A DNA stretch of 61,036 nucleotides. It comes from an uncultured Lachnospiraceae bacterium. GTDB taxonomy: Bacteria; Bacillota; Clostridia; Lachnospirales; Lachnospiraceae. A program made the translations under genes and the position numbers. The stretch covers positions 64,001 to 125,036 of the forward strand of contig CBFFWQ010000011.1 of NCBI GenBank assembly GCA_965645705.1, read 5' to 3'. Of the stretch, positions 20,557-47,645 are shown in pieces (the first letter of the stretch is position 1; every line of letters starts with the position of its first letter). The notes beneath the pieces were generated by a model that ran no database searches, was not told the DNA's origin, and saw only the letters and a program-made list of their open reading frames with translations.

Positions 20557-20557
20557 C

Positions 20558-21403: not shown

Positions 21404-21549
21404 CTTTCATGATGTGATTAAAAACCGGCAGAATAAGAAATTTCTGATAACAATGCACGCAATCCAACTACCAAAATAAAAAAGAATAAACCTGTTCGGA
21501 AATTTCGCTGGTGATAATACAGTGCTTAAAAATACACCAAAGCAATGAA

Positions 21550-21650: not shown

Positions 21651-21651
21651 A

Positions 21652-21993: not shown

Positions 21994-22042
21994 CTACCTT
22001 GAAACAGAATTTACAAATCTAAAGAATCATAAGTATAGCCTA

Positions 22043-22405
22043 CTACTTAATCACACCTTGCTCTATCATCTTTGCAATTTTCTCATCGGTAACAGGTTTT
22101 ATTAATTTATAGTCAACGGGATAAGTCGGACCTCCAACTACGAAAATTGCCTTCTCTTTTTCACAAATCGCAATACGCTTTGTATTAATATTTGCCTCAC
22201 TAAGAGCCATCAATATTGCTAATTGTTCATATTTAGTAGATGAAAGCTCATAATCATAAAGACAAGCTGATACTGCGTTATTAGCGACAAAATCAGCGAT
22301 CTCATGAATGTTATCTGTTACAATGCCAACCTCTATACCAGCGGCTTCTAAATTAGTCTGTAACACGAATGCGTTAAGACCTCGTTTCTGATAAACTGCT
22401 ACCAT
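22043..22405 (-). CDS. Receiver (CheY-like)-domain-like protein, possibly a pseudo-receiver
   Basis: C-terminal DYKLIKPVTDEKIAKMIEQ resembles the receiver alpha5 motif (D-YL-KP). No N-terminal acidic pair is present. Confidence 0.3.
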   Translation of the reverse strand: MVAVYQKRGLNAFVLQTNLEAAGIEVGIVTDNIHEIADFVANNAVSACLYDYELSSTKYEQLAILMALSEANINTKRIAICEKEKAIFVVGGPTYPVDYKLIKPVTDEKIAKMIEQGVIK

Positions 22406-22491
22406 AGTAACCCTTCTTTCTTTTTATTATTTGTTTACTGTTGCATTCACGAACCTTAAAATTTGCTAAACAAAAAGCTCGTACCTAAAGC

Positions 22492-23202: not shown

Positions 23203-23309
23203 ATTCCAGAAGGGTCACTTGGCAACTAACTAATACTGCCAAAATTTGGAAACCGTTCAATCTTTTGATAAAGTTTTTTAAAAATTATGATAGTTTGTGA
23301 AATTGGTGA

Positions 23310-23750
23310 CTATAAATACTGATTATCATAATACTGATTGTAAAACACTTGCACCTTTTCATAATCAATAAAAGAACCATCTTCTGTAAAAACAAGATTT
23401 ATATCGAAATTTTTTATGCACATCAATAAGGTTAGCTGCTTTACTCCATTTGGGGGAGCATCTGTATTAACTTCATTAATCAAATCAACTTTATGATCTA
23501 AAGCGAATACAGCGGCTTCTACACTTTCCGTACTTAAACGCTCTATCTTCAATCTTTTGTAAATTGCAGGACCAAATGATTTAATTCTATTTAATAGACT
23601 TTTACGACGCTCAAATTTATCACAATGACCAGAATCTAAAGGATTGACCACCCTGTTATTGGATTCATCAGCTTGAGCATTCTCTGCAAACAATTTACTG
23701 CCAACTTCAACAAAGGCATCACTTTCTTTTGCTTTATTCATAGTCCTCAT
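23310..23750 (-). CDS. Hypothetical protein
   Basis: 146-aa ORF. Confidence 0.45.
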   Translation of the reverse strand: MRTMNKAKESDAFVEVGSKLFAENAQADESNNRVVNPLDSGHCDKFERRKSLLNRIKSFGPAIYKRLKIERLSTESVEAAVFALDHKVDLINEVNTDAPPNGVKQLTLLMCIKNFDINLVFTEDGSFIDYEKVQVFYNQYYDNQYL

Positions 23751-23756
23751 GCCTTT

Positions 23757-26048: not shown

Positions 26049-26317
26049 ACCTCCTCTGCTAATCCGACAACATCAATAATTCTAAACAACTACCAGAGCA
26101 ATAAAAATGCACAACAATACAAAATAAACCGTAAATACTCTCACAATCTAAAGAACTATATAAAAATAAATTTATACTATTGATAAGTAAAATACCTAAA
26201 CAAACACTATAAATTTGTTTTGTATCAATTCCTTAGAAAAGCTTGTAAGTAGAGTACTGATAACAACAAAAAGATTCATTACGCTCTTAACGCAATGAAT
26301 CAGCAATTTAGAAGTGC

Positions 26318-27088
26318 CTAATAAACACAAATTAAGCTATAATAAACAGCACCATAATCTACATAACTATCTATTCGATTTTGTTCTATCTTCTCGCAAT
26401 GTATTATTTCGCCATAATGATTGTGCAAATACAAATACACAATAAAATCACTAGAATGCTTAATAATACCCTTAATCCTGTTAATACCCTTTTTCTTTAA
26501 GGAAACCTTTACAAACTCATTATCCAATTTGTAATCTAAGGGGTGTAATACACTAAAGTCAGCATAAACCAAAGCATCAGGTGAAATAGAATCAAAATAC
26601 ACCTCACCTAGAGCCAAATACTTTGCATCAATAGGAATTGTAAAAGAAAGTGTCTTAAGCTCCCTAGGATTATAATAATCTAAAGAAACTGTATCCGAAC
26701 ACAATAATTCCTTATTCTCACCATAAAACTCTATCTCTACACTCAAAAACTTTCCTAACAAGGAATGACTTGTATCAAAATTAATGCTTGCTCTATTACA
26801 CCTAATAGAAATGCCATAGAACCTTACAAAATCATCCTCATAAATAAGAACATTATTATCATAAACTAAAGGAATAAGGTCAGTATCAAGTCTTACATCA
26901 TACCCTGAAAATACCTCGTTCTCAAAATAATTAGCATAATTATCCATACTCAATTGCATAGAATCAGTTGCTTCCGAATACAATACCTCTTTGCTAACAT
27001 CAATTTTACGAGAATCTAAAGTACAGCCTACAAACAAACTACTTACTACTAACAGCAACGTACTCACGAACCGTAGATTCTTTCTCAT
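26318..27088 (-). CDS. Lipoprotein
   Basis: Start moved to internal Met: MRKNLRFVSTLLLVVSSLFVGC (lipobox). Confidence 0.5.
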   Translation of the reverse strand: MRKNLRFVSTLLLVVSSLFVGCTLDSRKIDVSKEVLYSEATDSMQLSMDNYANYFENEVFSGYDVRLDTDLIPLVYDNNVLIYEDDFVRFYGISIRCNRASINFDTSHSLLGKFLSVEIEFYGENKELLCSDTVSLDYYNPRELKTLSFTIPIDAKYLALGEVYFDSISPDALVYADFSVLHPLDYKLDNEFVKVSLKKKGINRIKGIIKHSSDFIVYLYLHNHYGEIIHCEKIEQNRIDSYVDYGAVYYSLICVY

Positions 27089-28754
27089 TGTCAAACACCT
27101 TATTCCCAATAACAGTTATGCAACGAACTCTCTCCATCTTCCTATTAAAGAAAGTCACTGAATGCTCTGATTCAAATTTCAGTCTATAGTCTAATAAATA
27201 CAATAACAGTCCATACTTCGGAGCAAATACATAACCGTAACCATACTTAAGCCCTTTTCTAATGTATTCACGCAAAGAAGTGTACTCTTTTGTCTTTTCA
27301 TTAGAAAGAATTGGTACATCTGGTAGTACACTTAAAGCTGCAATACACGAACGTCTTATTAACAAAAGATCAGGAAAAGCGTCCAAATCTGTTCTTGTTT
27401 TATCATTAAGTCTAAGTTCTATCTCATCAGCATGACTAATGCCATGCCTGATAAACATCTCTATGAAAGGAGTACTTTGATTAGAATGCTTGCAACCACC
27501 CAACAAAACATTATGAAGAGACTGTTTATTCCGTAGCCACTCTGTACGAAATCCATGTGACCTCATAGACCGAAAGAAAGACAATGGAGATACACCATTT
27601 ACCTCATTCTCAGAATAACCTAAAGAACGGAGACGATTAATCTCTTCCTCATCTTGAGAATACTTATAAGCATACAAATCCTGTATCGCTGAAAAAGATA
27701 AATTACGCAATAAACTGTTTACATTATACCTCTGCAATGCCAGATCTGTAAGAAATTTACTTGCTTCGTCATCAATATCCTGAAATAGAAAATCGTAAGG
27801 TACAAAACCATTGATACACTTAATAAGGCACTTCAACTTAACTTCACTCAAATCATTCTCCATTACTATGGAGAAATCCATCTTATTACGAATCATAGTA
27901 TTTATAGCAGAAACCTTAGATGAAGCAAGGCTACCCAACTCGTAAATAAATGCATTCATGTTTATCATAGTATCTGGATCCCATATCCAAATATTAACCA
28001 TCTCATTTGATGCATAGGAGAACTTAAAAAAGCCATTCTCCCTAAAACTCTTATAACTCTTATAAGGCATCTTATAACTCTCTTGATGGAGTTCCGCTAC
28101 TTGATAACCCATAGTCATCTGGTCATAAACTAAAGTAGTCTCCTGTAAAAATACTGGCTGCATATCTTTATCAATACCATCATCTAAAGAGCTGTCTGGT
28201 AGTCGAACAAAGAAAGTTTGTCCAGTCAAATACTGTCGTTTCAGCTTTTCACAATACACAGGATCGTTAAAAGTTTTCGTCCATCCTATAAAATTCTCCA
28301 TACCACCTTCTATTGGATACAAAACCAAAGCAGGTCTATCTGATACAGGACCAAATGTTGGTCTTATGTTTGCTGCAGCTGCAACATCAGGATAATCTGA
28401 TAACAAAGTAACTGTTGTTAGAAATTTATTAACCGAATTTATTTTTTGCTTAGAAGCAGTCATTTCATCATAGTTTTGCAAGTTCTTTACGAAATTGCCA
28501 AAACCAATTAAAATACCATAATACTCAGCACTCCACATACTATCAGTATCTTCTAAGCTAACCTGCTGATAATAATTAGTCTCATAAATCTCCGAAGAAC
28601 CTTTGACACGCTCCGCTATGTCTTTATCTTCAAGAAACAAATAACAATCTTTTCTCCGAAAATTACCAGAACCCTTATAATTTAATTCTACCCAGCCTCT
28701 ATCTAATAAAAGTTTTGTTATAGTAGGTAGATACTTATTCAAATCCGCTCGCAT
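27039..28754 (-). CDS. Hypothetical protein (571 aa)
   Basis: Long ORF. Confidence 0.55.
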   Translation of the reverse strand: MRADLNKYLPTITKLLLDRGWVELNYKGSGNFRRKDCYLFLEDKDIAERVKGSSEIYETNYYQQVSLEDTDSMWSAEYYGILIGFGNFVKNLQNYDEMTASKQKINSVNKFLTTVTLLSDYPDVAAAANIRPTFGPVSDRPALVLYPIEGGMENFIGWTKTFNDPVYCEKLKRQYLTGQTFFVRLPDSSLDDGIDKDMQPVFLQETTLVYDQMTMGYQVAELHQESYKMPYKSYKSFRENGFFKFSYASNEMVNIWIWDPDTMINMNAFIYELGSLASSKVSAINTMIRNKMDFSIVMENDLSEVKLKCLIKCINGFVPYDFLFQDIDDEASKFLTDLALQRYNVNSLLRNLSFSAIQDLYAYKYSQDEEEINRLRSLGYSENEVNGVSPLSFFRSMRSHGFRTEWLRNKQSLHNVLLGGCKHSNQSTPFIEMFIRHGISHADEIELRLNDKTRTDLDAFPDLLLIRRSCIAALSVLPDVPILSNEKTKEYTSLREYIRKGLKYGYGYVFAPKYGLLLYLLDYRLKFESEHSVTFFNRKMERVRCITVIGNKVFDNEKESTVREYVAVSSK

Positions 28755-29123
28755 TAAATCCCTGCCTTTCCCAAATATTAAAAATTTAAAACCAGACTCA
28801 CTAGCTGTAAAATTTACTACTAACTGAAAAGATATACCAACTATAACAAATATTTATTGGCAAATCTAAAACTCGTGAGTATATGCTAAACTTTCTTAAT
28901 GCATTTATTGCAAAAAAATAAAAGAGGTCAGTTAAGACTTCTTCTAATAACTTTCAAACTATTGTTTCAATCCACTCAGCAGTTAGGAGCAAGACAATTA
29001 CGTGGATTGCTTCATGACAAAGGATACCGCTTTCGCTCCGCCAGCTACTACCGTTACACTTGTTCCTAGCAATTCCTCCACCTACCTCAGAGGAAGAGGA
29101 ATCCTTACTGTTAATTGTTGAAT

Positions 29124-29668
29124 TTATTTTCTCCGATTATTTCCTAAAAAAGCATTTACTGGTTTTGCATCTAAAGAACTTGCATCAGTGTCACTTGTCT
29201 TTTTCTTCTTAGAAAAAATCTTATCATAATATTTTCTACTTGCTTCTGAATAATTATACTCTTGTTCTGCAATCTCATGTGCAGTAGTCACAGAATAATC
29301 GGGATTTTGCAACAGTATGGTAATCTCATACAACTCATGTTGGAGCATAAGTACATCATGAGGTTCTATATGTGCAAAATTTTTTCTGTCAATCGTCCCC
29401 ATGACTCAGCCATAGCATAATCAGGATCAAACGTTCTAAACCTACCGTTCCTACGCCAATGACAATTTTCAAAAATATAATCCCTTACAATCATAATCTG
29501 TTCAATAGAAAAATCGGTACGATCTGCAATTTTCGCACAATCAATAAATTTATTCCTGTTTCTAAACTGTTCGTATATTTTTTTGCAATATCTAGTGACT
29601 CAGGATCTCTATCAGGATCGTGAGCACCACTTTGCAAAAAATTCCTTTCATTCTCTTGCATAATCTAC
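29124..29668 (-). pseudogene. Possible frameshifted gene (three frame segments)
   Basis: The minus strand reads MQENERNFLQSGAHDPDRDPES...LNRL*, then in another frame IDCAKIADRTDFSIEQIMIVRDYIFENCHWRRNGRFRTFDPDYAMAESW, then the annotated ORF MGTIDRKNFAHIEPHD.... The junctions are in A/T runs. Confidence 0.3.
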
Positions 29669-29901
29669 CCCCACATTACTGAATAAATTTCTGGCAAAAA
29701 ACCGTCTTCTTCCATCGCAAGTAATAAATTTCCAGTAGCTTTAAAAACCTCCCAATCACGGTCATCTGGTGAAATCTCCCATCTTCTTTCCTTTCTAAAA
29801 ATTTTTACATCAAAATACCTGTTTGTTTTTGGATGATACGCCTTTGCCCAAATAAAATCATCATCATACCTAATTTCCATAAAATCAACCATTTTACACA
29901 C
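29665..29901 (-). CDS. Small hypothetical protein (78 aa)
   Basis: ORF MCKMVDFMEIRYDDDFIWAKAYHPK...; a degenerate internally deleted second copy follows at ~29960-30150. Confidence 0.4.
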   Translation of the reverse strand: MCKMVDFMEIRYDDDFIWAKAYHPKTNRYFDVKIFRKERRWEISPDDRDWEVFKATGNLLLAMEEDGFLPEIYSVMWG

Positions 29902-29959
29902 TCCTTTACTGTTCTAATTTTTAAACTATTCTTATGAAATCTTTTACAATACGTAAGGA

Positions 29960-30150
29960 TTCAGGATTTTCCCCAGAATTTCAAACACCACTTTGCAACA
30001 AATTACCCCCACATTACTGAATACTCTTCTGGCAAAAAATCATCTTCTTTCCTTTCTAAAAATTTTTACATCAAAATACCTATTTATTCTTGAATGATAC
30101 GCCTTTGCTCAAATAAAATCATCATACCTAATTTCTGTAAAATTAACCAT
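29960..30150 (-). repeat. Degenerate, internally deleted tandem duplicate of the 29600-29905 unit
   Basis: Near-identical strings (caccactttgcaa...cccccacattactgaata...ctttctaaaaatttttacatcaaaatacct...gatgatacgcctttgc...aaataaaatcatcat...cctaatttc) with a ~70-bp deletion and point changes. Confidence 0.6.
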
Positions 30151-30384
30151 AGTAAAAACTCATTTACTATTTTAATGGATCTCTCATATAATGAAGACGT
30201 AATTTACCTCTTGTTCTTGCATCATACTGCATACCACCTATTAGTATCTCTACATCAGCAGAATCATTATTAGGTTCAATTTATTTTAATACTTTTTTAC
30301 ATTAAAATAAATACTTTGCTTAATAATTTTTCTTTACAAAATAATCTATAATCTAAAGTGTGGAGTTCTGTTATAAAAACCACA

Positions 30385-31269
30385 CTAATTATCTACCGAA
30401 TCTGTCGGTGAAACTGAAACACTGGAAGAATCGTCAGAAGGAACAGAATCACCTGAATCAGCAATAGAAGAATTACCTGAACTGGAAGTACCAGAAGATG
30501 GATTCAAAACACTCTCTACCAAAGAAGCATCCTGTAATTCACGATCTATGAAAAAATCAATACCTCGTGTAATAATAAGAGGACGCATGAATACATCTAT
30601 TAAAATACAAACAAAAGCTTGCATAATACACAAAGAATAAAGTAAACCTAAACGACCCTGACCTAAAGTAAGAGTATAAGTGAAATTACCACGAAACAGA
30701 AATACGCCTAAAATCTGACAAATACTATAAACCCCAAAATCTTTCCAATCATAAGTAAGACACTCATTTAGATTTTCTTTGAATAATGCTAAAGCTTTCG
30801 CATACACACTCACATACTTATCCTCGGGTTGACCATATTTATAATAATACTTCATTACGCATACATTAATAGAGTCATAATACAATAAATTTAATAAAAC
30901 ACGTGGCTGGATAATTTTCCAAGCAATCCCTTCCTTACTCGGAATACCCTCTGCAAACTGCTTGCTAACGAAATTACTGCTAATGGTCACTAACCTAAAG
31001 GTTTTTAATGGAGATAAATCAGGCATAGCAGAACCTTGTTTCCCTTTTAAAGAAATTGACCATAACCAATACAAGACAGAATACCGTATTAAATAAAATA
31101 CTGCTACGCCAAATACAAAGAAAATAACTTCCCCGAAGAACCCAATCAAACTCGTATTAACACCGATAGCACGAATCATAAATGACGCACCGAAGTACGT
31201 ACACGCATACACCAGCAAGAAACTCACTAGTTCAATAAATGCACACAAAATACTATTCAATACACCCAT
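30385..31269 (-). CDS. Polytopic membrane protein with a Ser-rich C-terminal tail
   Basis: Multiple hydrophobic helices. The C-terminus is SSGTSSSGNSSIADSGDSVPSDDSSSVSVSPTDS. Confidence 0.55.
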   Translation of the reverse strand: MGVLNSILCAFIELVSFLLVYACTYFGASFMIRAIGVNTSLIGFFGEVIFFVFGVAVFYLIRYSVLYWLWSISLKGKQGSAMPDLSPLKTFRLVTISSNFVSKQFAEGIPSKEGIAWKIIQPRVLLNLLYYDSINVCVMKYYYKYGQPEDKYVSVYAKALALFKENLNECLTYDWKDFGVYSICQILGVFLFRGNFTYTLTLGQGRLGLLYSLCIMQAFVCILIDVFMRPLIITRGIDFFIDRELQDASLVESVLNPSSGTSSSGNSSIADSGDSVPSDDSSSVSVSPTDSVDN

Positions 31270-31280: not shown

Positions 31281-31799
31281 CTATTTTACACGTTTAAACT
31301 TTGGATAAAAGGTAATAAATGCTTTACCCAGCACATACGACTTATAAATATAAGGTTGTTCCCAATACCTTGCATCAGATGAATTAGATCTGTTATCACC
31401 TAAAAACAAATAACAATCGTCTGGCACAGTAAACGTCCCTGTATAATCAAAATTATTCTTCACATAATCTTCGACTAGCAGCTCACCGTCCACATACACA
31501 GTACCATTACGTATTGCTATTGTTTCTCCAGGGAGACCTACCACACGTTTTATTAAATTAATACGCTTTTCAGCAGAATAAAACGCTATTACATCGCCAC
31601 GTTCAATGGTGTCCTCCCCAACACGTAACAAAATAACTTTGTACCCTGCACCTATTGTTGGTGACATACTACCTGTTGGAACATTGATAACAGAAAATAA
31701 AAAAATCCTACCAATAATTAAAACTATACTTACTACAATTAAAAACGAAACTAAAAATACTTTAGCACTTCTCTTAAGTTTTGTTATGATACTAGTCAC
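31281..31799 (-). CDS. Signal peptidase I (S26 family, SipW/LepB-like)
   Basis: N-terminal TM. Box B PTGSMSPT (catalytic Ser), box D KRVVGLPGE (catalytic Lys), box E GDNRSNSSDAR. Confidence 0.8.
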   Translation of the reverse strand: MTSIITKLKRSAKVFLVSFLIVVSIVLIIGRIFLFSVINVPTGSMSPTIGAGYKVILLRVGEDTIERGDVIAFYSAEKRINLIKRVVGLPGETIAIRNGTVYVDGELLVEDYVKNNFDYTGTFTVPDDCYLFLGDNRSNSSDARYWEQPYIYKSYVLGKAFITFYPKFKRVK

Positions 31800-34344: not shown

Positions 34345-35355
34345 TTACTTTAATTCTTCATGCCATGGAACATCCATAAGCACTACATCCAAAAAAGCTT
34401 TTTGATAATGCTTCTTGTGTATCATGAACATTAACATGATTTTATTTGGATCAAGTTCAAAACCAAACTGCCATTGTAATTCCACTAAATACTTCTCTGG
34501 TAGTACCGTAACAGAACTTGACCAATTACTTGTTGCCATCCGAATATTGTCATACTTATTATACTCATCGTTAAAGACTAAATATACCTGCTCAAAAAGA
34601 TGATAATTACGACCCAAATGCTTATACATTGCTTCTATAGTCCCATCTAAAGACGACTTTTCCACATACGCATAAAACACAAGAGAAACATGACGAGACT
34701 CCTTTATACCATGAATCTTCATAAAACCATCTGGTGTACGAGAATACAGTAAGTAACCGCAGATAATACCTAAAGCATCGAAAGAATCATAATCCTTACT
34801 AAAATGAGTATCTCTATACTCGGACGTTCCTGGAAACAATTGTGCTACGTCATAAGAAACACAGGATTTACTATTACAACGTTTCCTAAATTGCTGATCG
34901 TTATCTTCTGCTAACTCTTTATTCACTACATACTTCTTCCAAGTCTGCGGAAACATCTTTTCATACAGTGCATCTTTCAACTCAGGTAAGATTTTAACCC
35001 AAGCATCCATACGTCCAGCCAATTCCTCAAGTACACGATTTGCATACTGATGAGATGGAACAGGACACTCTCTTACAACAATACAAATCTTCTGATTACG
35101 TATAGTATCACTTAAAACCTGCAACAGGATACCGTAAAAGGCATCCTTGTTATGTGCATCTCTACGTACATCTAATAACACAACTACACTGTAATCAGTA
35201 CTTACAATTGCAAAACCAGTACAAGAGGAAGACTGGTCGATCCCAATCATATATTCTTTTTTATCTGATAATTGTAATTTGAAATTATTATGCATTTGCG
35301 GTCTGATAAAATTAATTTTACCACCTACAACTACACACCCAGCTATTGTAGCCAT
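34345..35355 (-). CDS. RNase H-fold (RuvC/YqgF-like) protein candidate
   Basis: Near the N-terminus MIGIDQSSSCTGFAIVSTDYSVVVLLDV resembles the RuvC-like beta1-beta2 motif (IGIDxG...GxAv). Confidence 0.3.
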   Translation of the reverse strand: MATIAGCVVVGGKINFIRPQMHNNFKLQLSDKKEYMIGIDQSSSCTGFAIVSTDYSVVVLLDVRRDAHNKDAFYGILLQVLSDTIRNQKICIVVRECPVPSHQYANRVLEELAGRMDAWVKILPELKDALYEKMFPQTWKKYVVNKELAEDNDQQFRKRCNSKSCVSYDVAQLFPGTSEYRDTHFSKDYDSFDALGIICGYLLYSRTPDGFMKIHGIKESRHVSLVFYAYVEKSSLDGTIEAMYKHLGRNYHLFEQVYLVFNDEYNKYDNIRMATSNWSSSVTVLPEKYLVELQWQFGFELDPNKIMLMFMIHKKHYQKAFLDVVLMDVPWHEELK

Positions 35356-35428: not shown

Positions 35429-36094
35429 CTAATCATCCGACAAAAGTTCATCCAAATCTAAAGCGGACTTTTTCGGACTCTCAGCAAAACTAAAGGCGGA
35501 TGATGCCTCCGCCTTAATAGGCACACTCTTCTTGAACACTTCCTTATAAATCTCTTGTACTGACACATCATGCTGCATAAGCGAAATCATCTTCTTTATC
35601 TCCTGCAACGAACACTTTTTAGCAATCATCAATTTGCTTAATCCTACAAAACTGTCTGGTACATACAAATCGTAAGCATCTGTTTTAGCGACATCAAGAT
35701 GTGGCAACTTTTCATAAGAATCAATTTCAGGTTCTTTCTGATAAATCGTGTTGTTCCCTACGAATGCCTGCATACTAGGGTCACTCTTTAGAAGCTTCTC
35801 AGCTTCTGCATAAAAATTTGTAGTATTGCCGAGCTTCTCCGATTTATACATAGAAACAAACTTGATATAATTACCAGATCTTCCACAAGAAAAACAATGG
35901 AATCCATGAGTGGTGTCATTAAAAGAACACGAAGCATTCTCATCTAAATGAAAGGGACAACGTACCCAAAAATCGCTTCCTCTTTCATTGTAGCCAGACA
36001 ATAAATTATTCTCTCCGAGAAACTTCTTAAAACTATAGTCTGGGGAGTTATTTACAAATCGAATTACATTGTCAAGCACTTCTTTATTTATCAT
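35429..36094 (-). CDS. CHC2 zinc-finger protein (DnaG-primase-type zinc-binding domain)
   Basis: CPFHLDENASCSFNDTTHGFHCFSCGRSGNY matches the CPFHxExTPSF...CFGCGxxG primase zinc finger. No TOPRIM is evident in the 221 aa. Confidence 0.55.
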   Translation of the reverse strand: MINKEVLDNVIRFVNNSPDYSFKKFLGENNLLSGYNERGSDFWVRCPFHLDENASCSFNDTTHGFHCFSCGRSGNYIKFVSMYKSEKLGNTTNFYAEAEKLLKSDPSMQAFVGNNTIYQKEPEIDSYEKLPHLDVAKTDAYDLYVPDSFVGLSKLMIAKKCSLQEIKKMISLMQHDVSVQEIYKEVFKKSVPIKAEASSAFSFAESPKKSALDLDELLSDD

Positions 36095-36266: not shown

Positions 36267-38114
36267 CTATCTCGTTATTTTGGTGCGGTGTTCATTTGCA
36301 AACCGCTTCGCATCATCTAAAGTGAAGAGACTACCGATGTTATCCAAAATATATAAAAACTCTTCCCTATTTTTAGGACTCATGTTCTCTGCTGATTTAC
36401 GAAACATATAAATCCTCTTCTCATCTTTTGTCATGTTTTTAATTAATTCTTTCTCTTGTGCTTCACGTATCTTATCCTCGGAAGCTGATGCATTAAGATT
36501 AATAAGCAAACTTCTTCTAATTGGTTCAAGTGTTGGATTAATCAATTTACCTGTTTCAAAATCTTTTTTACTTCGTATCAGCACTTCACAATGCATCACA
36601 CAATCTGCATCAATAGTAAACTCTGCAGAAATATCTATAGAACCTTTTGGCACAGCAGGAACTTTATCAATCACTAACTGACCGACACGATTATAACCAC
36701 CGATACCACACGAAGACTGCTGATACAGATCCAGAATAATTAAATCTTGATCATCATAAGAATTTGTAAACGATTCCATAACGGAAGCTGGAATAGTGGA
36801 ATTCTTACTAAAGATAGGCTGCACTTTACCATCAACGTAAATACCGATTGTCAAAGGTAATACATCATGTATTATTATATCAGTATCACCATACAAAATA
36901 CCCTTAGACATAATACCAGCACCACGAGCGACTGGTTCATACTCAACAGAACTGTCATCTACAATAATTTCATACTTCTTTAAATCTCTGGCAAGCCACT
37001 CTTTCAAAGCATAATAACGACACGAATTGCCAACGAGAATCAGGGAATAAATTGGGACACGACTATCCATAATAACATTCTCTGTAATTTTTAACAGACG
37101 CTTATACAATGGAACAAATGCTTTCTCTACATCGTCTGTAGTTATTTTAACTTCAAACTCTGTCGCATCTTCCCTTAATTGACCTTCATACCAGATTGGT
37201 ATTTTACTAAGTATAACCTGTCCTTTACTACAATGCTTATAAGACTCTGCTTTAGAAATAAGGCTTGCTCTACAAGCTTGATCTAAATCCTCTACATCGA
37301 CACCTAAAGTCTGCAATTTCTCATACAAAATCTCCACAATACTTTTATCAAAGTCATCACCACCTAAAGCAGTATCACCATCAACGTTGATAGGCTCTAC
37401 TAACTTTGAGCCTTCTTTTAAATCTTCACACTCAATACCATACAAATCGTACAGTTCACGCAATAATCCAGTATCGGTTGCATGAACTAAAGATACATCA
37501 AAAGTACCACCACCAAAATCAAACACCAAATTATAAGAACTTCTCATTTGTGTTTCATCCAGATTATAGCACATGGCAGCAGAAGTAGGTTCTCGCAGAA
37601 TATACAAACAATTCATCCCAGCTAAAGCACAAGCTTTCTTGGTATTTTCAACACCTACGTTATCAAATTTAGCTGGGACTGTTACTACTACATCCCTAAC
37701 TTTTCCTTCATAACCTTTCGTTTGATCTGCAATTCCCTTTAAAATCATTGCAGAAACTTCTGTTGGTGTTTTTACAACACGCTCGCCATTATACTCGAAT
37801 ACTACCATTGCCGTAGGATCTTGCATCTTGCTCTTTACTGAAGTACATACATTTGGATTACCTTGATGGGCGTACTTATAAGCTTCATCACCAACTACCC
37901 AATTGTCACCGCCAAGCCACATAACTACTGACGGCATTGTTAATTTACCGCTCTTCAGCACTATGTTTTCAGCAGCATGATTCTTTAAACCGCAACTGAT
38001 AGAACTATTTGTAGTTCCTAAATCAATCCCAAATGGAATCGATTCCACTACATCTGACTTTTTACTTGATGCGGAAGATGTAAAAGCATCCACTTCTCTA
38101 GCATACTCTGACAT
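36267..38114 (-). CDS. Hsp70/DnaK-family ATPase, divergent
   Basis: GIDLGTTNSS; VVVTVPAKFDN...ILREPTSAAMCYNLD; FDFGGGTFDVSLV; ALGGDDFDKSIV; LILVGNSCRY. Start moved to MSEYAREV at 38114, preceded by AAAGGAGAA. Confidence 0.8.
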   Translation of the reverse strand: MSEYAREVDAFTSSASSKKSDVVESIPFGIDLGTTNSSISCGLKNHAAENIVLKSGKLTMPSVVMWLGGDNWVVGDEAYKYAHQGNPNVCTSVKSKMQDPTAMVVFEYNGERVVKTPTEVSAMILKGIADQTKGYEGKVRDVVVTVPAKFDNVGVENTKKACALAGMNCLYILREPTSAAMCYNLDETQMRSSYNLVFDFGGGTFDVSLVHATDTGLLRELYDLYGIECEDLKEGSKLVEPINVDGDTALGGDDFDKSIVEILYEKLQTLGVDVEDLDQACRASLISKAESYKHCSKGQVILSKIPIWYEGQLREDATEFEVKITTDDVEKAFVPLYKRLLKITENVIMDSRVPIYSLILVGNSCRYYALKEWLARDLKKYEIIVDDSSVEYEPVARGAGIMSKGILYGDTDIIIHDVLPLTIGIYVDGKVQPIFSKNSTIPASVMESFTNSYDDQDLIILDLYQQSSCGIGGYNRVGQLVIDKVPAVPKGSIDISAEFTIDADCVMHCEVLIRSKKDFETGKLINPTLEPIRRSLLINLNASASEDKIREAQEKELIKNMTKDEKRIYMFRKSAENMSPKNREEFLYILDNIGSLFTLDDAKRFANEHRTKITR

Positions 38115-38252
38115 AAACAAATTCTCCTTTCTTGAATGCAATAGAAACTGTACAAAAAATAAATTTATAAATGTAACAAAAATGAACCTTGTTACACCCA
38201 TACAATTAAAATAACCTAAAGCTTGAAAGTACATCAATGCCTACTTCAACTT

Positions 38253-38292
38253 AAAAACTGCTATGCTTTACGCACAGCAGTCCATAATTTAT
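38253..38292 (-). terminator. Putative terminator after the Fic gene
   Basis: On the minus strand CTGCTGTGC-loop-GCATAGCAG is followed by TTTTTAAG. Confidence 0.4.
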
Positions 38293-38346
38293 TGTCTTAT
38301 TAAAAAATTCTTTGTAAGTACACATAACTGTTAAATAAACAAACAT

Positions 38347-39141
38347 CTATTCTAAGAATGAAAATATAGGAAGTGCCTTTGAATTCGTATTTTCATTATT
38401 AGCTTTTGTACTATCTATTAATCCTTCAACAGTTTTTTTATACCAATCCTGTTCAACTTTAAAATATAAAATTAAATCTTCAAAAATTCCCATTTTCTGT
38501 GCTTTATTTATTGCAGTAATATACTGTAATTTATTAGAATCCCTTACAATAAAAGGAATCAAATTATTATTAAGGCACTCACGAAATAAGAGCATCCGTC
38601 CTGTTCTACCATTACCATCTTGAAAAGGATGTATGGCTTCATATAAAGCATGAAACTCAGCTAAGTCATCTAAGGTTTTATTAGAATTTCCATAACGTTC
38701 TAATAATTTTCTCATTGCTGCAGGAACATCTTTTGGTAGTATAGTTTGAATATCATTTACGACATTTGCACGTGTCTTATAATCCCCAATAGCATATCCA
38801 TTAGCTATATCCTCAAAAACCCCTTGTTTCAATATTTTATGAAAGTTCTTAATTAATTCCTCAGATAAGTTATCTTCCAATGTTTTAAGCATAAAATTAA
38901 ATAATGCAAAATGTCCAGATGTTTCTTCAATATCTTTAGCTCGGTAAATGCCATCTGCATAAATAGTTCCTGTACTAAATAAAGAAGCAGTTTGATCCTT
39001 ACTCAACTTGCTACCTTCTATTTTGTTTGAATTATAAGCAAACTCTCTTTGAGTAAAACCGTAAACTCCGCTACGAATTTCATGTTCTTTTTCTTGAATT
39101 AAAGCAGTTAATAACAATTGATTAAAATCATTCATATGCAA
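38347..39141 (-). CDS. fic: Fic-domain AMPylase with an N-terminal inhibitory helix
   Basis: Fic motif HPFQDGNGRTGR. Inhibitory motif S-x-x-x-E-G (SNKIEGS) upstream of the Fic core (class II arrangement). Confidence 0.85.
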   Translation of the reverse strand: MHMNDFNQLLLTALIQEKEHEIRSGVYGFTQREFAYNSNKIEGSKLSKDQTASLFSTGTIYADGIYRAKDIEETSGHFALFNFMLKTLEDNLSEELIKNFHKILKQGVFEDIANGYAIGDYKTRANVVNDIQTILPKDVPAAMRKLLERYGNSNKTLDDLAEFHALYEAIHPFQDGNGRTGRMLLFRECLNNNLIPFIVRDSNKLQYITAINKAQKMGIFEDLILYFKVEQDWYKKTVEGLIDSTKANNENTNSKALPIFSFLE

Positions 39142-39587
39142 TTTTCTCCATTCCTATTGAAATATACTATTGATTTAACGATACCTACACAATAATCATT
39201 CTCTTTTAAATAATCAACCACTTTCAACCGACAGGAATATAAACAACACATCATACTAAAAGTAAATTTTTCATCTGATGTTTCCTACAAACATCATTAA
39301 CTTGCTGCATCTGGTTGTTCTAAATAAACAATTTCTATATCATAATCCCTATCATTCCTTTCTTTTGAAAATTTATGAAAACCTCAATATTTTACTATTT
39401 TATCATTACAGCAATACAATGTCAAACAAATAAAGATTTCCAATAAAATAAATTCTACTATTCTTTACAAAACCTAAAGGAACAGTATAAAACAGCACCC
39501 CCAATAAAGGAAATGCTGTTAATACTATCTAATAAAAACCAGCAATTGCCTTATGTTACTGAAAGATCTTGAGTCATATAACCCTAC

Positions 39588-41192
39588 CTAAAGTGTATAC
39601 AGAGAATCATCACCTTCGCCATACTGTGCTTCCAAAGAAGCAATTGCTTGATCAGCATCCAGTACCTCTTGAAAATCACCGCCCTGCAACGACTCATCAT
39701 AAACAAAACCACAAACATCAAAGAACTTTTTCATTGTGATTCTATACGTAATAGGTCTTGCTCTACGCTTATGAACTTCTATCTGTATTAAGTTCTGCAA
39801 ACGCAAAGTTTCATTCTCACGCAAAATGATACACATATCAGACTCTGCTTCCAAAGTCTGACTTTCTCTCGTTGTTGGTACATCTTTTGGTACATCTTGG
39901 TCACGCTGTAAATAGTACCTTGCTTCGGAGCTAGGGTGTGATGTAACCAAAACACACACTGGATAATTCCTCTTAAAGTTACGCAGACATACTGACAGCT
40001 TATCTATATTTTCTTTCTTTGTACTTCTCGGACCTTCTAATAAAGCAAGTGAATGGTCAACTACCAGTACATCAAACTTTATCCGATTATAATCAGCCAC
40101 CAATTCCTCACCCAAATTGTCATAATGATAAGCTTCTCTCAAATTGATATTTCCACTTTCCATTGTACTCATAATAGACATTCGTATTACCTTACTTACT
40201 TCATCACCATAATCATCTGGATTCTTAACCATATCTGGAGTAATGAATTTTCCATACTCCTGCCATACATAATTCACAATGATTAAAGCCCATACTTGGG
40301 CTTCTGTATTTTCAGAATACATAAACAGTACACGATACCCTGCACGCAACACTCTGACCACTGTATGTATACAAAGCATGGTTTTACCAACACCTGCGGA
40401 TGCTACAATACTATACAGTTTATTTCGCAATAAAGGAGTTTCATCGTCTAGATCTGGAATACCCCATAAACAAACGGGAATAAACGTCATTCTCAAATCC
40501 TCTTGAATCTTCTGAACGTCTGATAAACTTTTAATAGATACTACATTGTTTGCATTATCTATGTCGTCAATACGATTACGAATCTCTATCGAAGCTAAAG
40601 AAGTGTAACGTAGCCAATCTTCGCTACCTCCATAAGTCTCTCTGCCAATTCTTATCTGTCCGACAAGAATCTTGCCTTGCAACTTAACAGTATCTTCTCC
40701 TGCCTTACGAAGAAATGCGGATTTATACAAGGGCATAGAGTTAATGATAGAATCTGATTCCTGAGCTAAAACGAAACAATTATCATACAACTCGATAGTA
40801 CGAGAATAAATAATCTCTGCCGCTTTCTCTCTGACAACACCATTCGATAAATCGGAATCCATAGCCTCGCTATCAAGAAACTCCTTCATACGCACAAAGG
40901 AATTAATTGTCAAATCAAACGCATTATCTTCGACAATCTGTTTTACAATTTCTTTTGTTGCATAAGGCTTGTAATCAACCAAACCTAAGGCAATCTGATT
41001 CATTTGATTTAGTACACTAAGAAGTGTATAGTATTCCATATTAAACTCTTCCAATTTAATATAGCTGAAAACACAATCCATTACTGTTGAAAACATTCCT
41101 GGATTATAATTCTTATGTGGAAGTGCTGCACTAATAAATGTATTTACAACACCCATCAAATACTCGTCCTGTAAAACATTCAAATAGATCAA
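39588..41192 (-). CDS. DnaB-like/RecA-fold ATPase (replicative-helicase C-terminal-domain-like)
   Basis: Walker A SAGVGKTMLCIHTVV...VLFMYSENT; Walker B VLVVDHSLAL; CVLVTSHPS. Confidence 0.5.
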   Translation of the reverse strand: MIYLNVLQDEYLMGVVNTFISAALPHKNYNPGMFSTVMDCVFSYIKLEEFNMEYYTLLSVLNQMNQIALGLVDYKPYATKEIVKQIVEDNAFDLTINSFVRMKEFLDSEAMDSDLSNGVVREKAAEIIYSRTIELYDNCFVLAQESDSIINSMPLYKSAFLRKAGEDTVKLQGKILVGQIRIGRETYGGSEDWLRYTSLASIEIRNRIDDIDNANNVVSIKSLSDVQKIQEDLRMTFIPVCLWGIPDLDDETPLLRNKLYSIVASAGVGKTMLCIHTVVRVLRAGYRVLFMYSENTEAQVWALIIVNYVWQEYGKFITPDMVKNPDDYGDEVSKVIRMSIMSTMESGNINLREAYHYDNLGEELVADYNRIKFDVLVVDHSLALLEGPRSTKKENIDKLSVCLRNFKRNYPVCVLVTSHPSSEARYYLQRDQDVPKDVPTTRESQTLEAESDMCIILRENETLRLQNLIQIEVHKRRARPITYRITMKKFFDVCGFVYDESLQGGDFQEVLDADQAIASLEAQYGEGDDSLYTL

Positions 41193-42538
41193 TCACGACC
41201 ACCACCTATCAATTCATTGGCAACATCTGTAACAGCTGTATACTCCACATTTACAATATCTTTGACTAACTGAGTAAGTGGCAGAATGCTATCTCTAAAA
41301 TACTCTACTTCCTCTGACTCGGCTACCATCATGAAATACACATCTAAAGTTTTCGTATACAGACCACGATAAGCACGACCTACTACCTGATCTACATTAA
41401 TAGTCAATTCGTAAAACAATACATACTCGCAGTCCAAATTTAATGCCTCTTCTACAGAGGTGATTACTACGTCATACTTACCATGTTTATTAAATTCCTT
41501 CATCACGCAATTACGTTCTTTTAAAGACGTATAACCATTAATACAAGCATACTCAATACCTGCCTGCTTCAAAAACGGCAATACAAATTCTCGTACTTCA
41601 TGCATCCTTACATACACAATTCCACGTCTATGCTGATTCTTTTGACTAACAATAAGATTAACCAAGGCTACTACAGAATTAATCGCACCTTGACCTTTAC
41701 AAATTAAAGAACGGTCAACACGTTTTGCACGCTTCTGATGATCTAAAGCTGGCACAATTACAGGAATTCCTCGCACACAGGAATCAAAACCTAAATCTTT
41801 CCTTGTTCTTTGAATAAAAAAACAAGGGTCACAATCGAAACTAATCTCATGACGAGTTAATTGTCTGTTAAGTCTCTCTGGATTAGGATACTTATCAGGA
41901 TCAAGCATACAAGCCAATCGTACAAATTGATCTAAAGAGGATACGATTGGTGTCGCTGTAAGTGCCCACTTATACTCAAAATGATTACACACTCCACGCA
42001 ACATACCTGCTGTACTTGCTTTATGAACATTATTAAGATTGTGGGCTTCGTCAATAATAAGAGCATTAAAATCATTTTTATACTTGAAAATAAGTCCCAT
42101 TAAATCACGATTGCCCAAACACTGATGAGTTAGCATCAATACACTACAACGTAAAAAGTCACCGCTTTCAAACAGAGTTTGTAAACTCTTTTGAGTGGCA
42201 TTACTCGACTCTACCCTCAATCCAGTTAATTTTTCTACATCAGCAGGGGTTTGTGATAACTGGTTATTCTTTACAAACATCAGCACCCTGCTTTCTGGAT
42301 TCAATAAGTAAAGCCATCTTATCAATGCTGACGCAATATAAGTTTTGCCTGTACCAGTTCCATACATACACAATGCAGTTTTGCGTGCCATCATCTTAAC
42401 CACATCTAAAGCCTGCAAAGGGTGAAGTGTTTCTTCATTAACAAAAAGTCCAATAACTTCCTCTAAGTTAACAGCATCTAATAACTCTTTCTCAAACGAA
42501 GTTAATGACCACTGGCTTACAATTTCCTCATTACTCAC
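41189..42538 (-). CDS. SF2 DEAH-box helicase
   Basis: Motif I YGTGTGKTYIA; motif II LIIDEAHNL; motif VI QVVGRAYRG. Confidence 0.7.
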   Translation of the reverse strand: MSNEEIVSQWSLTSFEKELLDAVNLEEVIGLFVNEETLHPLQALDVVKMMARKTALCMYGTGTGKTYIASALIRWLYLLNPESRVLMFVKNNQLSQTPADVEKLTGLRVESSNATQKSLQTLFESGDFLRCSVLMLTHQCLGNRDLMGLIFKYKNDFNALIIDEAHNLNNVHKASTAGMLRGVCNHFEYKWALTATPIVSSLDQFVRLACMLDPDKYPNPERLNRQLTRHEISFDCDPCFFIQRTRKDLGFDSCVRGIPVIVPALDHQKRAKRVDRSLICKGQGAINSVVALVNLIVSQKNQHRRGIVYVRMHEVREFVLPFLKQAGIEYACINGYTSLKERNCVMKEFNKHGKYDVVITSVEEALNLDCEYVLFYELTINVDQVVGRAYRGLYTKTLDVYFMMVAESEEVEYFRDSILPLTQLVKDIVNVEYTAVTDVANELIGGGRD

Positions 42539-45750: not shown

Positions 45751-46281
45751 TTAATACAAATAATCAACATCTTCAATAAAATCAAGGCATTCACACTCCT
45801 TTATTTTACTAATACGACCATGACTTACTTCAAAAATCATAATAAACAGACGGTCAGGTTCTACACAATTGGACTCAATACGATACAATACGTACTTATC
45901 TGTAGCCTCTACTACATTAATTATACTCTTGTTTCCATAATACCGTACATACGTATACAACTGTCTATTCTCGTTATCAATCGTAAGACCAGCATAGGTA
46001 TCTTCATCCATAATCTGAGCAAGACGTTTTTGATTTTCTTGTACCTCATCTAAAGAATCGAAGTCATACATCAGCATAACCGCTTCTACACCTAAAGTTC
46101 TCTTCAAGGAAACACTTGCTGAACTCAAAAAAAATACCACAATAGAAATTAATGCAGCAACAAAAACAAGTACACGCAATCCAATCCACACCACGGACAC
46201 AACGGATACTTTAGAATCCGCAGAGAAATCATCATACTCTTCTTCACTCTTTGCCATGCTATCAATCCTTTGCAAAAGCAT
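45751..46281 (-). CDS. Membrane-anchored hypothetical protein
   Basis: TM helix plus a C-terminal domain. Confidence 0.45.
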   Translation of the reverse strand: MLLQRIDSMAKSEEEYDDFSADSKVSVVSVVWIGLRVLVFVAALISIVVFFLSSASVSLKRTLGVEAVMLMYDFDSLDEVQENQKRLAQIMDEDTYAGLTIDNENRQLYTYVRYYGNKSIINVVEATDKYVLYRIESNCVEPDRLFIMIFEVSHGRISKIKECECLDFIEDVDYLY

Positions 46282-46855
46282 TCACTGTTTCTGCTTGTTC
46301 TACAAAATCATCCTCAGATGCAGTCAACCGCTCATCCTTTGGGTTTGTGATACCCATCTTTAACATTTTCAGTGCTAAAGATTGTGGTAATTTCTGTACA
46401 CTGTACTTCAATTCACCTATTTTCTCATGAATAGTGTATTCACCTGAAACGCTATTAATAAGTGCCCGACCTAAAGTAGAGTCTGTAGAAAGAACCCTCT
46501 TCCGTGGATCAGGATCTCTAGTATCACCCTCATAGTCCACACGAAGAATACGTGGGACAAACTTAGGATCAACAGGGGACAACAAATTAATAAGTACAAA
46601 AGAGCCAACTCCTATTCTCGGACCATCATCAGGCGGAATAACTGTTAATGAAGGAGACGAAATTTTATTTCGTAATTCCTTAATACGAAATGACGTTTTA
46701 TCACACGCCATACGAGCTGCCTCATATTCAGCATTCTCAGATAAATCACCTAAAGCACGAGCTTCTTCCTTCTCAACATTCTGTTTTTCTAAAAGTTTCT
46801 CTAATTCGAATAATTCCGCCTTATACTCTTCCAACTGGAAAGATGAAATTTCCAT
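46262..46855 (-). CDS. greA: GreA/GreB-family transcript cleavage factor homolog
   Basis: ARALGDLSENAEYEAAR (E. coli GreA: AREHGDLKENAEYHAAR). C-terminal FKBP-like LSTDSTLGRALINSVSGEYTIH (GreA: VNSPIARGLIGKEEDDVV). Confidence 0.8.
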   Translation of the reverse strand: MEISSFQLEEYKAELFELEKLLEKQNVEKEEARALGDLSENAEYEAARMACDKTSFRIKELRNKISSPSLTVIPPDDGPRIGVGSFVLINLLSPVDPKFVPRILRVDYEGDTRDPDPRKRVLSTDSTLGRALINSVSGEYTIHEKIGELKYSVQKLPQSLALKMLKMGITNPKDERLTASEDDFVEQAETVNAFAKD

Positions 46856-46856: not shown

Positions 46857-47645
46857 CTATTCTCCTTTCATTTTCTCCCGATAATCAGTAAACCTAATTA
46901 CTACAGGATACTTCAACGGATTGTCAACTTCATTCACATCTAAAGCAGATGATTTGATGGCATCAAAAGAACGCCCCCAATCTCTTTTACTCATCGTTTC
47001 AAGCGAATAACGTGACATGAAAAAAGTCGGTAGTCCTTTACGACTCCGCTTATCCAATAAATCTTCTATGATCATATATGCCTCTTCACGGTACACAGTT
47101 TTTATTACTGTTACAAATACAACATCAGCCGATACATACTCATCATAAGTTACGCCTAATAATTCCTTCATCTGCTTATCTGCTGATGGACGGTCAGCTG
47201 CCAGTGTACACAATCGCTTGACTTCTTGTGTGTCAAGCAATGGTGCAACTGTAAAACCTTTTAAAGAAGCATACTGCATACAACTATACGCAAAGGTTAT
47301 TTTACCAAACTTAGGTGGTGCGATAATTATCGCAGACTTTGTAGGTATTCGACCATTAGCAAACAACGTATGAATCTTTTCCAACTGATCAACTACAAAT
47401 AAAAAATACTGATTAGAAAGTAGCTCAGCGTGCGTAGTTATTAAAAATTCTTTATTCCATGAAACACCTACATACTGATCTGGAATACGCTTCAGCTTTG
47501 AAGTAATTAACAAGTTTTTCTTTGTTTCTGGATCTTGAATCAAATTAAAACTTGTCCCTGTCTTTTTCTTACCACAGGTCGGACAATCCTTATCTGGAAA
47601 ACCATGCCCACCGCAATCAAAGCATACTCTTGTTTCTTTACTCAA
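46857..47645 (-). CDS. Zinc-ribbon + P-loop-like protein (possible DnaC/IstB-like loader)
   Basis: N-terminal CFDCGG...CPTCG. IIAPPKFGKITFAYSCMQYASLKGFTV resembles an IstB/DnaC Walker A region but deviates from it. Confidence 0.3.
   Translation of the reverse strand: MSKETRVCFDCGGHGFPDKDCPTCGKKKTGTSFNLIQDPETKKNLLITSKLKRIPDQYVGVSWNKEFLITTHAELLSNQYFLFVVDQLEKIHTLFANGRIPTKSAIIIAPPKFGKITFAYSCMQYASLKGFTVAPLLDTQEVKRLCTLAADRPSADKQMKELLGVTYDEYVSADVVFVTVIKTVYREEAYMIIEDLLDKRSRKGLPTFFMSRYSLETMSKRDWGRSFDAIKSSALDVNEVDNPLKYPVVIRFTDYREKMKGE

Follow-up and report, generated by a model that had tools for sequence, protein, structure and literature searches.

A Fic gene beside a divergent Hsp70 in a very large gut element reads as hotspot cargo rather than as half of a conserved pair

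Does a Fic gene that lies directly upstream of the gene for a divergent Hsp70 work together with it, or does it owe its place to something else? The question is raised by 61,036 nt of DNA from an uncultured Lachnospiraceae bacterium (contig CBFFWQ010000011.1), referred to over its whole length as the window. The original prediction had described an autoinhibited, class II-like Fic protein followed, after its own terminator, by a full-length DnaK-like protein. It had proposed that the two could be an enzyme-substrate module analogous to FICD and BiP, a toxin with a chaperone-like partner, or a defence pair, and had named lack of conservation in related elements as the result that would speak against this; its fallback was that the Hsp70 acts with nearby replication genes. 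We favour, at a probability of about 65%, a reading in which the Fic gene is cargo that entered a variable hotspot next to a core Hsp70 gene, and in which the Hsp70 is tied to the helicase and primase-like genes of the element. On the evidence below, the adjacency of the two genes reflects an insertion site and not a conserved functional pairing. The two genes, with the motifs of the Fic protein, lie as follows.

36267..38237, minus strand: open reading frame (ORF) of the Hsp70; from the ATG at 38114, which follows AAAGGAG, the gene spans 36267..38114 (615 amino acids, aa).
38347..39141, minus strand: ORF of the Fic protein; from the likely start, the ATG at 39135 after GGAG, the gene spans 38347..39135 (262 aa).
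38596..38631, minus strand: catalytic motif HPFQDGNGRTGR (Fic residues 169-180), matching the catalytic loop HxFx(D/E)GNGRxxR.
39013..39030, minus strand: N-terminal inhibitory-helix motif SNKIEG (Fic residues 36-41; S36..E40-G41).

The Fic protein scored 60 bits against Pfam Fic (PF02661; 3.6e-16, cut-off 24), which places it in the Fic/Doc superfamily, and Pfam gave no other domain along its 262 residues. With SNKIEG, an (S/T)xxxE(G/N) helix, in the same chain as HPFQDGNGRTGR, it is by its motifs a glutamate-bearing Fic protein of class II (the intramolecular, N-terminal type), and autoinhibition is predicted. The product of the adjoining gene belongs to the Hsp70 family (Pfam HSP70, PF00012; 7.2e-65) and shows the full Hsp70 fold in a structural model. 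The original prediction was borne out in these descriptions, as it was for the terminator that follows the Fic gene and for the primase-type zinc-finger and RNase H-fold proteins encoded downstream of the Hsp70, all of which are detailed below. The family matches are too strong to be due to chance.

Loci related to the window (labelled L003-L012, L246-L254 and L324-L333, the window's own lineage included) comprise six found through relatives of the Hsp70 and eleven found independently through a search of a metagenome collection with the zinc-ribbon protein encoded next to it. In the latter search, each full-length relative with sufficient flank had an Hsp70 directly upstream. The Hsp70s of the related loci were 33-41% identical to that of the window; the contigs that encode them measure between 61 and 527 kb and come for the most part from the human gut. 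A phmmer map of 16 related loci revealed a conserved block, present in all the long ones, consisting of an SNF2 helicase, a DnaB-like helicase, variable cargo, the Hsp70, the zinc-ribbon protein, a RuvC-like protein and an S26 peptidase. The longer fixed order of the relatives runs from a NERD gene through a gene of no assigned function, a GreA-like gene, four further genes of no assigned function, SNF2, DnaB-like, the variable stretch, Hsp70, zinc-ribbon, RuvC-like, a short gene and S26 to a sigma factor, and the window has the same order. Its block genes around the Hsp70 are the following.

41189..42538, minus strand: SNF2-family helicase, the first block gene (Pfam ResIII, Helicase_C and SNF2-rel_dom); syntenic in the relatives.
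39588..41192, minus strand: DnaB-like replicative helicase, the upstream border of the hotspot (Pfam DnaB_C 2.7e-9; phrog_19 6.9e-13); syntenic in all long relatives.
35429..36094, minus strand: DnaG-type CHC2 zinc-ribbon protein, 221 aa (Pfam Zn_ribbon_DnaG 2.8e-12).
34345..35355, minus strand: RuvC-like protein of the RNase H fold, 336 aa (phrog_159 9.7e-9); syntenic in the relatives.
31281..31799: S26 signal peptidase.

Within this conserved block, the Fic gene was the part that did not recur. The phmmer map and a motif scan found Fic in 0 of the 16 related loci, and the Fic motif was likewise found within 10 kb in 0 of 160 control loci, these being ordinary bacterial or viral DnaK loci from scans of genome and viral contigs with the Hsp70 clade alignment. 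Those scans were swamped by ordinary DnaK, because the patterns derived for them, GIDLGTTNS and YDLGGGTF, are universal, and they yielded no information on clade or host. In the window's own lineage, the motif scan found Fic at all nine loci, each with HPFQDGNGRTGR unchanged. The neighbourhoods of the closest Fic homologues, which are 60-66% identical to the window protein, held no Hsp70; their contexts were a serine-recombinase island and a chromosomal RsmF/pseudouridine-synthase/RecU region. A 42%-identical homologue in a Heliusvirales phage had no Hsp70 nearby either. Because Fic is absent from the related loci, the interpretation as a conserved module is unsupported beyond one lineage, and co-occurrence across related genomes gives no FICD-BiP-type module. 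The proposed enzyme-substrate, toxin-partner or defence module therefore ran into the very result that the original prediction had named as refuting it, and what survives of the expected neighbourhood conservation is retention of the pair within one shallow lineage.

The boundaries of the inserted segment could be delineated from three signals.

39491..39520, minus strand: hairpin (12-bp stem) with a U-rich tail just 3' of the DnaB-like stop codon; the 101-nt segment folds with a z-score of -2.55.
39397..39425, minus strand: putative sigma-70-like promoter of the Fic cassette (TTGACA, 17 nt, TG-TAAAAT), a match to consensus only.
38253..38283, minus strand: predicted intrinsic terminator of the Fic cassette, a 12-bp hairpin followed by UUUUU.

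The first hairpin closes the upstream operon before the Fic cassette. The putative promoter lies in a 450-bp AT-rich non-coding gap upstream of Fic and was the top-scoring site in a consensus scan of 6 kb (11 of 12, with an extended -10). The terminator is absent from the list of a consensus terminator scan and is clear by folding, with a free energy of -20.1 kcal/mol, a z-score of -4.98 and 0 of 200 shuffled sequences as stable. The GC content is 0.27-0.31 over the cassette versus 0.35-0.39 in the flanks. These features would fit an accessory cassette that stands on its own, about 1.25 kb long and placed between the DnaB-like gene and the Hsp70 gene.

The interval between the DnaB-like and Hsp70 genes, in which Fic is the sole gene of the window, ranged from 0.57 to 7.25 kb among the relatives, and its cargo differed from one to another, including a 185-aa protein, an AAA_14 ATPase, BspA-type leucine-rich-repeat proteins, an HD-domain protein and proteins of no assigned function. 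In the simplest relatives, the interval is 0.57 kb long and contains only the conserved protein of about 185 aa, whose gene immediately precedes that of the Hsp70 in nearly every relative, for example at the following positions.

L003:9428-9985: conserved protein of about 185 aa.
L005:9431-9988: the same.
L008:8870-9445: the same.
L009:9420-9989: the same.
L011:9150-9710: the same.

This gene was sought in the window and is absent from it; the window lineage, alone in having Fic and alone in lacking the 185-aa gene, has Fic in that slot. The 185-aa protein was considered as a degenerate Fic, a GrpE or a J-protein and rejected as each, having no Pfam match and no similarity to Fic; it may be a co-factor of the Hsp70. 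A second variable cargo spot was also seen, with a RES-domain-like gene in the sister lineage described below (L324:16003-16818) that is absent from the window at about 28754..30385.

The sister lineage was reached from a word-indexed search with the zinc-ribbon protein, which returned three hits. Its zinc-ribbon protein, 92% identical to that of the window, occurs in more than 50 assemblies, on contigs of up to 285 kb. All eight sister-lineage loci inspected had the order DnaB-like, Fic, Hsp70, zinc-ribbon, indicating that Fic is stably kept in the lineage. Between the window and the sister lineage, the backbone genes showed 88-92% nucleotide identity and a synonymous divergence (pS) of 0.32-0.44, whereas Fic showed 96.7% identity and a pS of 0.115, about one third that of its neighbours, with a ratio of nonsynonymous to synonymous divergence (pN/pS) of 0.11. 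The tract of high identity coincided with the Fic ORF only. The simplest reading of these values is that the two sub-lineages split first, that the Fic cassette spread or was exchanged later, and that it has been kept by purifying selection; entry into the lineage, or exchange into it, would then have been recent.

The Hsp70 has a different history. The 615-aa protein is identical to one called on a metagenome-assembled contig at NCBI, and it has the complete architecture of the family: a nucleotide-binding domain, the hydrophobic linker DIIIHDVLPLTIG, a beta substrate-binding domain and a helical lid. An alignment to DnaK (2V7Y) showed that the catalytic D, K, E, D and T are kept, as are the GIDLGTTNS, K, REPT and DFGGGTFD motifs. 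An AlphaFold (AF2) model had a mean predicted local distance difference test (pLDDT) score of 80. Foldseek matched it to full-length DnaK and BiP with E values of 1e-45 to 1e-41 over 560-640 columns, and it superposed on BiP, including AMPylated BiP, with a root-mean-square deviation of 5-6 A over about 570 columns. It is not DnaK in the narrow sense, falling below the NCBIfam equivalog cut-offs of NF001413 (228 bits versus 648) and TIGR02350 (218 versus 823), nor is it HscA (221 bits versus a cut-off of 709). A PADLOC search, in which the Hsp70 was considered as a defence component, gave no match, and this role was rejected.

Outside its own 90% cluster, the Hsp70 had no relative above about 41% identity, and about two dozen sequences at 33-41% form a clade with it; the backbone proteins of the window similarly had no relative above about 41% outside the lineage. 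Identity to any cellular DnaK recovered was 33% at most. With a profile of the clade, over 100 clusters (50% identity) scored higher than 400 bits within a single stretch, which indicates that the subfamily is large. These results are consistent with the Hsp70 being a complete two-domain member of a separate subfamily and an old core gene of very large gut elements, set in a fixed replication-type block. Carriage of an Hsp70 gene on a very large mobile genome is shared with jumbo phages (moraphages, Lak and other huge phages) and with giant viruses. The moraphage DnaKs are recent acquisitions nested in host DnaK clades, often accompanied by DnaJ (PMC12619734), whereas the window Hsp70 is a core syntenic gene with a diverse clade of its own.

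The co-chaperone relations of this clade also appear unusual. A Pfam scan of 48 window proteins and the precomputed Pfam listings for the relatives contained no J-domain or GrpE hit. In DnaK, R167 contacts the HPD motif of the J-domain; at this column, 0 of 24 clade members have arginine. With no co-encoded DnaJ or GrpE found and R167 not conserved, a canonical DnaK-DnaJ-GrpE system was rejected, use of host co-chaperones being possible, and the Hsp70 would probably act without a canonical J-domain co-chaperone.

Within the 24-sequence alignment, the window Hsp70 is the most deviant member, with 10 private substitutions at otherwise invariant columns. The adenosine-binding motif GGSTK, invariant elsewhere in the clade, reads GNSCR (residues 360-366), and the tryptophan of a conserved RW is Phe at residue 571. 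In addition, one loop of the substrate-binding domain is expanded.

36513..36569, minus strand: expanded loop L7,8, KKDFETGKLINPTLEPIRR, of the substrate-binding domain; lineage-specific and containing Thr in the clade alignment.

In the relatives, this loop has 3-4 residues and no Thr. Its site is presumably equivalent to that of BiP Thr518, in a reconstructed BiP numbering. These peculiarities bear on a lineage-specific enzyme-substrate pair, in which the incoming Fic would have displaced the 185-aa gene, taken over its regulatory slot, and would regulate the element's own Hsp70 through AMPylation and de-AMPylation of the Thr-bearing L7,8 loop, a bacterial mobile-element analogue of FICD-BiP. 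We regard such a pair as improbable. It would agree with the adjacency at all nine loci, the intact catalytic and inhibitory motifs, the pN/pS of 0.11, the position of Fic where relatives hold the 185-aa gene that the window lineage has lost, and the loop, and glutamate-bearing Fic proteins may be bifunctional, the physiological targets of bacterial CdFic- and EfFIC-type enzymes not being known (PMC6408439). However, the loop, the substitutions and the 185-aa loss all trace back to one event in evolution, on a long branch, as do all the points in favour, and they are therefore a lead and not evidence. The absence of Fic from the 16 related and 160 control loci, the closest homologues without an Hsp70 neighbour, and the separate putative promoter and terminator of Fic argue the other way, and the threefold lower pS of Fic indicates two genes without a shared history.

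The comparison with the eukaryotic system points in the same direction. FICD (also HYPE) and BiP likewise combine a glutamate-bearing Fic protein with an Hsp70, and FICD docks on BiP through its tetratricopeptide repeat (TPR) domain, as seen in the FICD-BiP complex (PDB 6ZMD, 7B7Z). The window Fic has neither TPR nor membrane anchor, and FICD chains match its Fic core only, at about 5e-5; it was not accepted as a FICD/HYPE orthologue. Moreover, in contrast to the FICD-BiP pair, the pairing is not conserved among the relatives, nor is the loop with the BiP Thr518 equivalent conserved in the clade of the window Hsp70.

If Fic is cargo, its source would be a CdFic/PDC-S04-type gene of the common pool of Clostridia and mobile elements. 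More than 4000 Fic homologues had E values below 1e-10, annotated 'Fic family protein' in Butyrivibrio, Lachnospiraceae and Clostridiales, and the window Fic shares 60-66% identity with thousands of such ordinary Fic proteins, in contrast to the backbone proteins. Phages commonly carry homologues, as do many Streptococcus phage satellites. The closest solved structure is that of the Clostridium difficile Fic protein CdFic (PDB 4X2E; Dedic et al. 2016, cited in PMC7479194; 6.5e-27 over aligned residues 7-231). In the alignment, each residue of the window's SNKIEG falls on its counterpart in the inhibitory motif of 4X2E, which in the S/E-to-A mutant 4X2C reads ANKIAG. Both proteins have a single domain (about 235-262 aa), the N-terminal SNKIEG and an HPFxDGNGRxGR loop, but the similarity is moderate, and a 30-residue C-terminal tail belongs to the window protein. 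Auto-AMPylation by CdFic is reported to be independent of the inhibitory motif, so the term 'autoinhibited' is not certain for the CdFic subfamily.

A full-length match was also obtained to the PADLOC model PDC-S04 (PDLC04836; 2.7e-88, residues 6-240 against model positions 3-238 of 244), whereas the match to SoFic, a validated system, was weaker (1.9e-22) and covered only model positions 61-256 of 361. Like both of these, the window Fic is a stand-alone gene carried by a mobile element. SoFic itself requires a Fic domain together with a C-terminal domain that regulates toxicity, is about 100 aa longer and has in one case a small downstream antitoxin (PMC12249575); the window Fic ends at 262 aa as against about 360, lacks both, and was not assigned to the SoFic system. 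Class I toxins such as FicT and VbhT, which AMPylate GyrB and ParE, share the catalytic motif and a possible tie to DNA replication and topology, but their inhibitory helix lies on a separate antitoxin, whereas that of the window Fic is intramolecular. A class I toxin-antitoxin system was likewise rejected, with no credible small antitoxin ORF in the cassette; a search for one beside Fic found none conserved, and conservation of the spacers on either side is poor in the sister lineage.

These relationships raise a specific version of the cargo reading, namely that Fic is a single-gene abortive-infection, defence or addiction toxin of the giant element that hits an essential host protein such as GyrB or ParE, with the Hsp70 irrelevant. 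This is possible, although the odds are against it. The PDC-S04 and SoFic matches, the homologues in phages and satellites, and the location in a variable hotspot, with a second variable spot holding the RES-domain-like gene, are in its favour; SoFic is reported to work through toxic AMPylation in abortive infection (PMC12249575), and bacterial Fic toxins AMPylate GyrB and ParE (PMC7479194). On the other hand, PDC-S04 is a computational defence candidate that gave no defence in one native-host test (bioRxiv 10.1101/2024.12.20.629700), and several class II Fic proteins tested left GyrB and ParE unmodified and were not toxic (PMC7479194). The missing SoFic C-terminal domain, the lack of a conserved antitoxin-like ORF and the presence of close homologues in housekeeping chromosomal neighbourhoods also count against such a toxin. 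For the cargo reading in general, the role of Fic would be regulated AMPylation of some host or invader protein in defence, competition or host manipulation; that it is selected cargo serving defence or competition is our leading guess.

The second half of the favoured reading concerns the partners of the Hsp70. The zinc-ribbon gene lies directly 3' of the Hsp70 gene in 14 of the 16 related loci, and the Hsp70 stop codon overlaps the zinc-ribbon start in L003, L005 and L011. Profile searches of the PDB with the zinc-ribbon protein hit only the primase zinc-binding domains 2AU3 and 1D0Q (profile positions 40-89). A bacterial DnaG primase combines a zinc-binding domain with a TOPRIM RNA-polymerase domain and a helicase-binding domain; the 221-aa protein was not assigned to this family, only the CHC2 zinc ribbon being detected and no TOPRIM catalytic domain, and its AlphaFold model, built from four sequences, was too poor to classify the C-terminal half (pLDDT 55.6). 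An alignment of the RuvC-like protein showed conserved GIDQSTTCTG, EEP and DxDxFDA motifs. The constant helicase, zinc-ribbon and RuvC-like neighbours, together with the stop/start overlaps, point to a dedicated remodelling role of the Hsp70. It would probably act as a chaperone for the helicase and primase-like replication or recombination proteins of the element, with the zinc-ribbon protein as the most likely partner or client, and the fallback of the original prediction thus fits the conserved synteny. Host DnaK, DnaJ and GrpE act in replication initiation of lambda and of plasmids (P1, F, RK2). There an Hsp70 is functionally linked to a DnaB-type helicase and to initiator or loader complexes; in the window the link is one of gene order, from DnaB-like helicase through Hsp70 to primase-type zinc ribbon, and the element encodes its own Hsp70, with no J-protein or GrpE gene found and R167 not conserved.

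A conserved 262-aa protein is encoded at 46857..47645 on the minus strand, between the NERD and GreA-like genes, with a DnaJ-style CxxCxGxG zinc motif (CFDCGGHG) and a P-loop-like segment; searches gave no family match and no PDB sequence match for this zinc-finger protein, which is a possible candidate for a helicase loader or co-chaperone.

Alternatively, the Hsp70 could serve the many very large or exported proteins of the element as a general chaperone in folding or secretion, and could owe its place in the helicase block to history. At least six lipoproteins, a Big_2 surface protein, a PrsA-like foldase and the S26 signal peptidase, the last within the conserved block itself, are encoded in the window, as are proteins of 1176 and more than 1421 aa, with one of 2202 aa just upstream, and DnaK and DnaJ homologues of jumbo phages are thought to aid virion or host-takeover proteins (PMC12619734). 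Nevertheless, the tightest and most constant neighbours of the Hsp70 are the DnaB-like helicase, the zinc-ribbon protein, often with a stop/start overlap, and the RuvC-like nuclease, and the lack of an encoded J-protein or GrpE together with the missing J-contact arginine would be unusual for a foldase of broad specificity. We therefore consider a general chaperone unlikely.

Several points weigh against the reading of Fic as cargo beside a replication-linked Hsp70. Fic has been kept beside the Hsp70 at all nine loci of the lineage under purifying selection, and a lineage-specific functional link is consequently conceivable. The loss of the 185-aa gene, the 10 private substitutions and the Thr-bearing loop could mean that regulation of the Hsp70 changed as Fic arrived. 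The low synonymous divergence of Fic could partly come from constraints on codons or composition and not from recent exchange. For a defence function, the negative native-host test of PDC-S04 cited above is unfavourable. Gene identities, synteny, the absence of Fic from the relatives, the cassette boundaries and the decoupled divergence are observations; the cellular role of Fic and the replisome role of the Hsp70 are inferred, the latter from gene order. An origin, an initiator, a polymerase and a catalytic primase were all missing among the features recognised in the window, and the many secreted proteins and lipoproteins of the element are possible clients of a general chaperone.

The window is a piece of one of a family of unclassified, very large elements of gut metagenomes, with contigs of 172-285 kb in the lineage and up to 527 kb among the relatives; exact window proteins were found on 50-60 contigs of up to 172-285 kb. 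All of its genes lie on the minus strand except one transposase gene, the GC skew is strong, and most of the proteins have no Pfam, PHROG or NCBIfam match. A megablast search of 15 kb against phages (INPHARED) and a tblastn search of phages with the DnaB-like protein returned nothing, and the Hsp70 gave only canonical-level matches of 27-33% identity in phages and plasmids (PLSDB). IMG/VR, searched with the window Hsp70 and with alignments of the zinc-ribbon and RuvC-like proteins, contained no family member, the zinc-ribbon alignment matching only the generic primase zinc finger. No capsid, terminase or portal gene was recognisable in the window, where a comparison of 30 proteins with PHROGs gave replication proteins, Fic, the Hsp70 and an Ig-domain protein. 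NCBIfam gave nothing for nine large window proteins of no assigned family, and neither tRNAs nor Rfam families were found in the window. The element may be megaplasmid-like or phage-like.

Other genes of the window were noted in passing. The sole plus-strand gene (9153..10772) encodes an insertion sequence (IS)-type DDE transposase (DDE_Tnp_1_6, DUF772) that recurs as an identical protein on 19 contigs of up to 366 kb and might help point to the host. A cluster of genes for exported proteins (11045..27109, minus strand) holds at least six lipobox lipoproteins and includes a PrsA-like peptidyl-prolyl isomerase lipoprotein (11045..12259), a transglutaminase-like protein (12296..13066) and a surface protein with six Big_2 repeats (16027..18102), all on the minus strand. 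A protein with a PARG_cat_microb poly(ADP-ribose) glycohydrolase domain (14014..14832, minus strand; 1.4e-17) is a possible counter to ADP-ribosylating defences or toxins. A sigma-70-family factor (22492..23202) and a protein resembling the GreA N-terminus (46262..46855), both on the minus strand, are conserved in the relatives, and possession of its own sigma factor and GreA-like protein suggests that the element has partly autonomous control of transcription. At the left end, a fusion of more than 1421 aa (3..4265, minus strand), which runs past the window, joins an N6-adenine-methylase-like domain to an SNF2 helicase and adjoins a small WXG-motif protein (FWSGPEHDKF; 4641..5072, minus strand). 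At 50406..56071 on the minus strand, a 1176-aa protein with NlpC/P60 and C39-like peptidase domains adjoins a 666-aa P-loop ATPase (GKTGCGKT) that had no family match and no PDB sequence match; the pair is reminiscent of Gram-positive conjugation genes, a resemblance that is unproven. A SleB-like hydrolase is also encoded in the window.

As a finding, the Fic/Hsp70 module is weak, since the two genes came together locally and recently through an accident of insertion. The Fic cassette is instead a clean example of hotspot cargo under selection, with a predicted transcription unit of its own, and a possible test case for PDC-S04 candidates. The Hsp70 represents a diverse, previously undescribed subfamily that is a fixed core gene of very large gut elements, and in these giant gut elements, a new family, its clade may be a replisome chaperone that is independent of J-proteins and has a primase-type zinc-ribbon protein as its partner. 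If the Hsp70 is a dedicated replisome or helicase chaperone, a mobile element would have internalised a step for which lambda and many plasmids rely on their host, and nature would here provide a case of an Hsp70 whose partner is not a J-protein.

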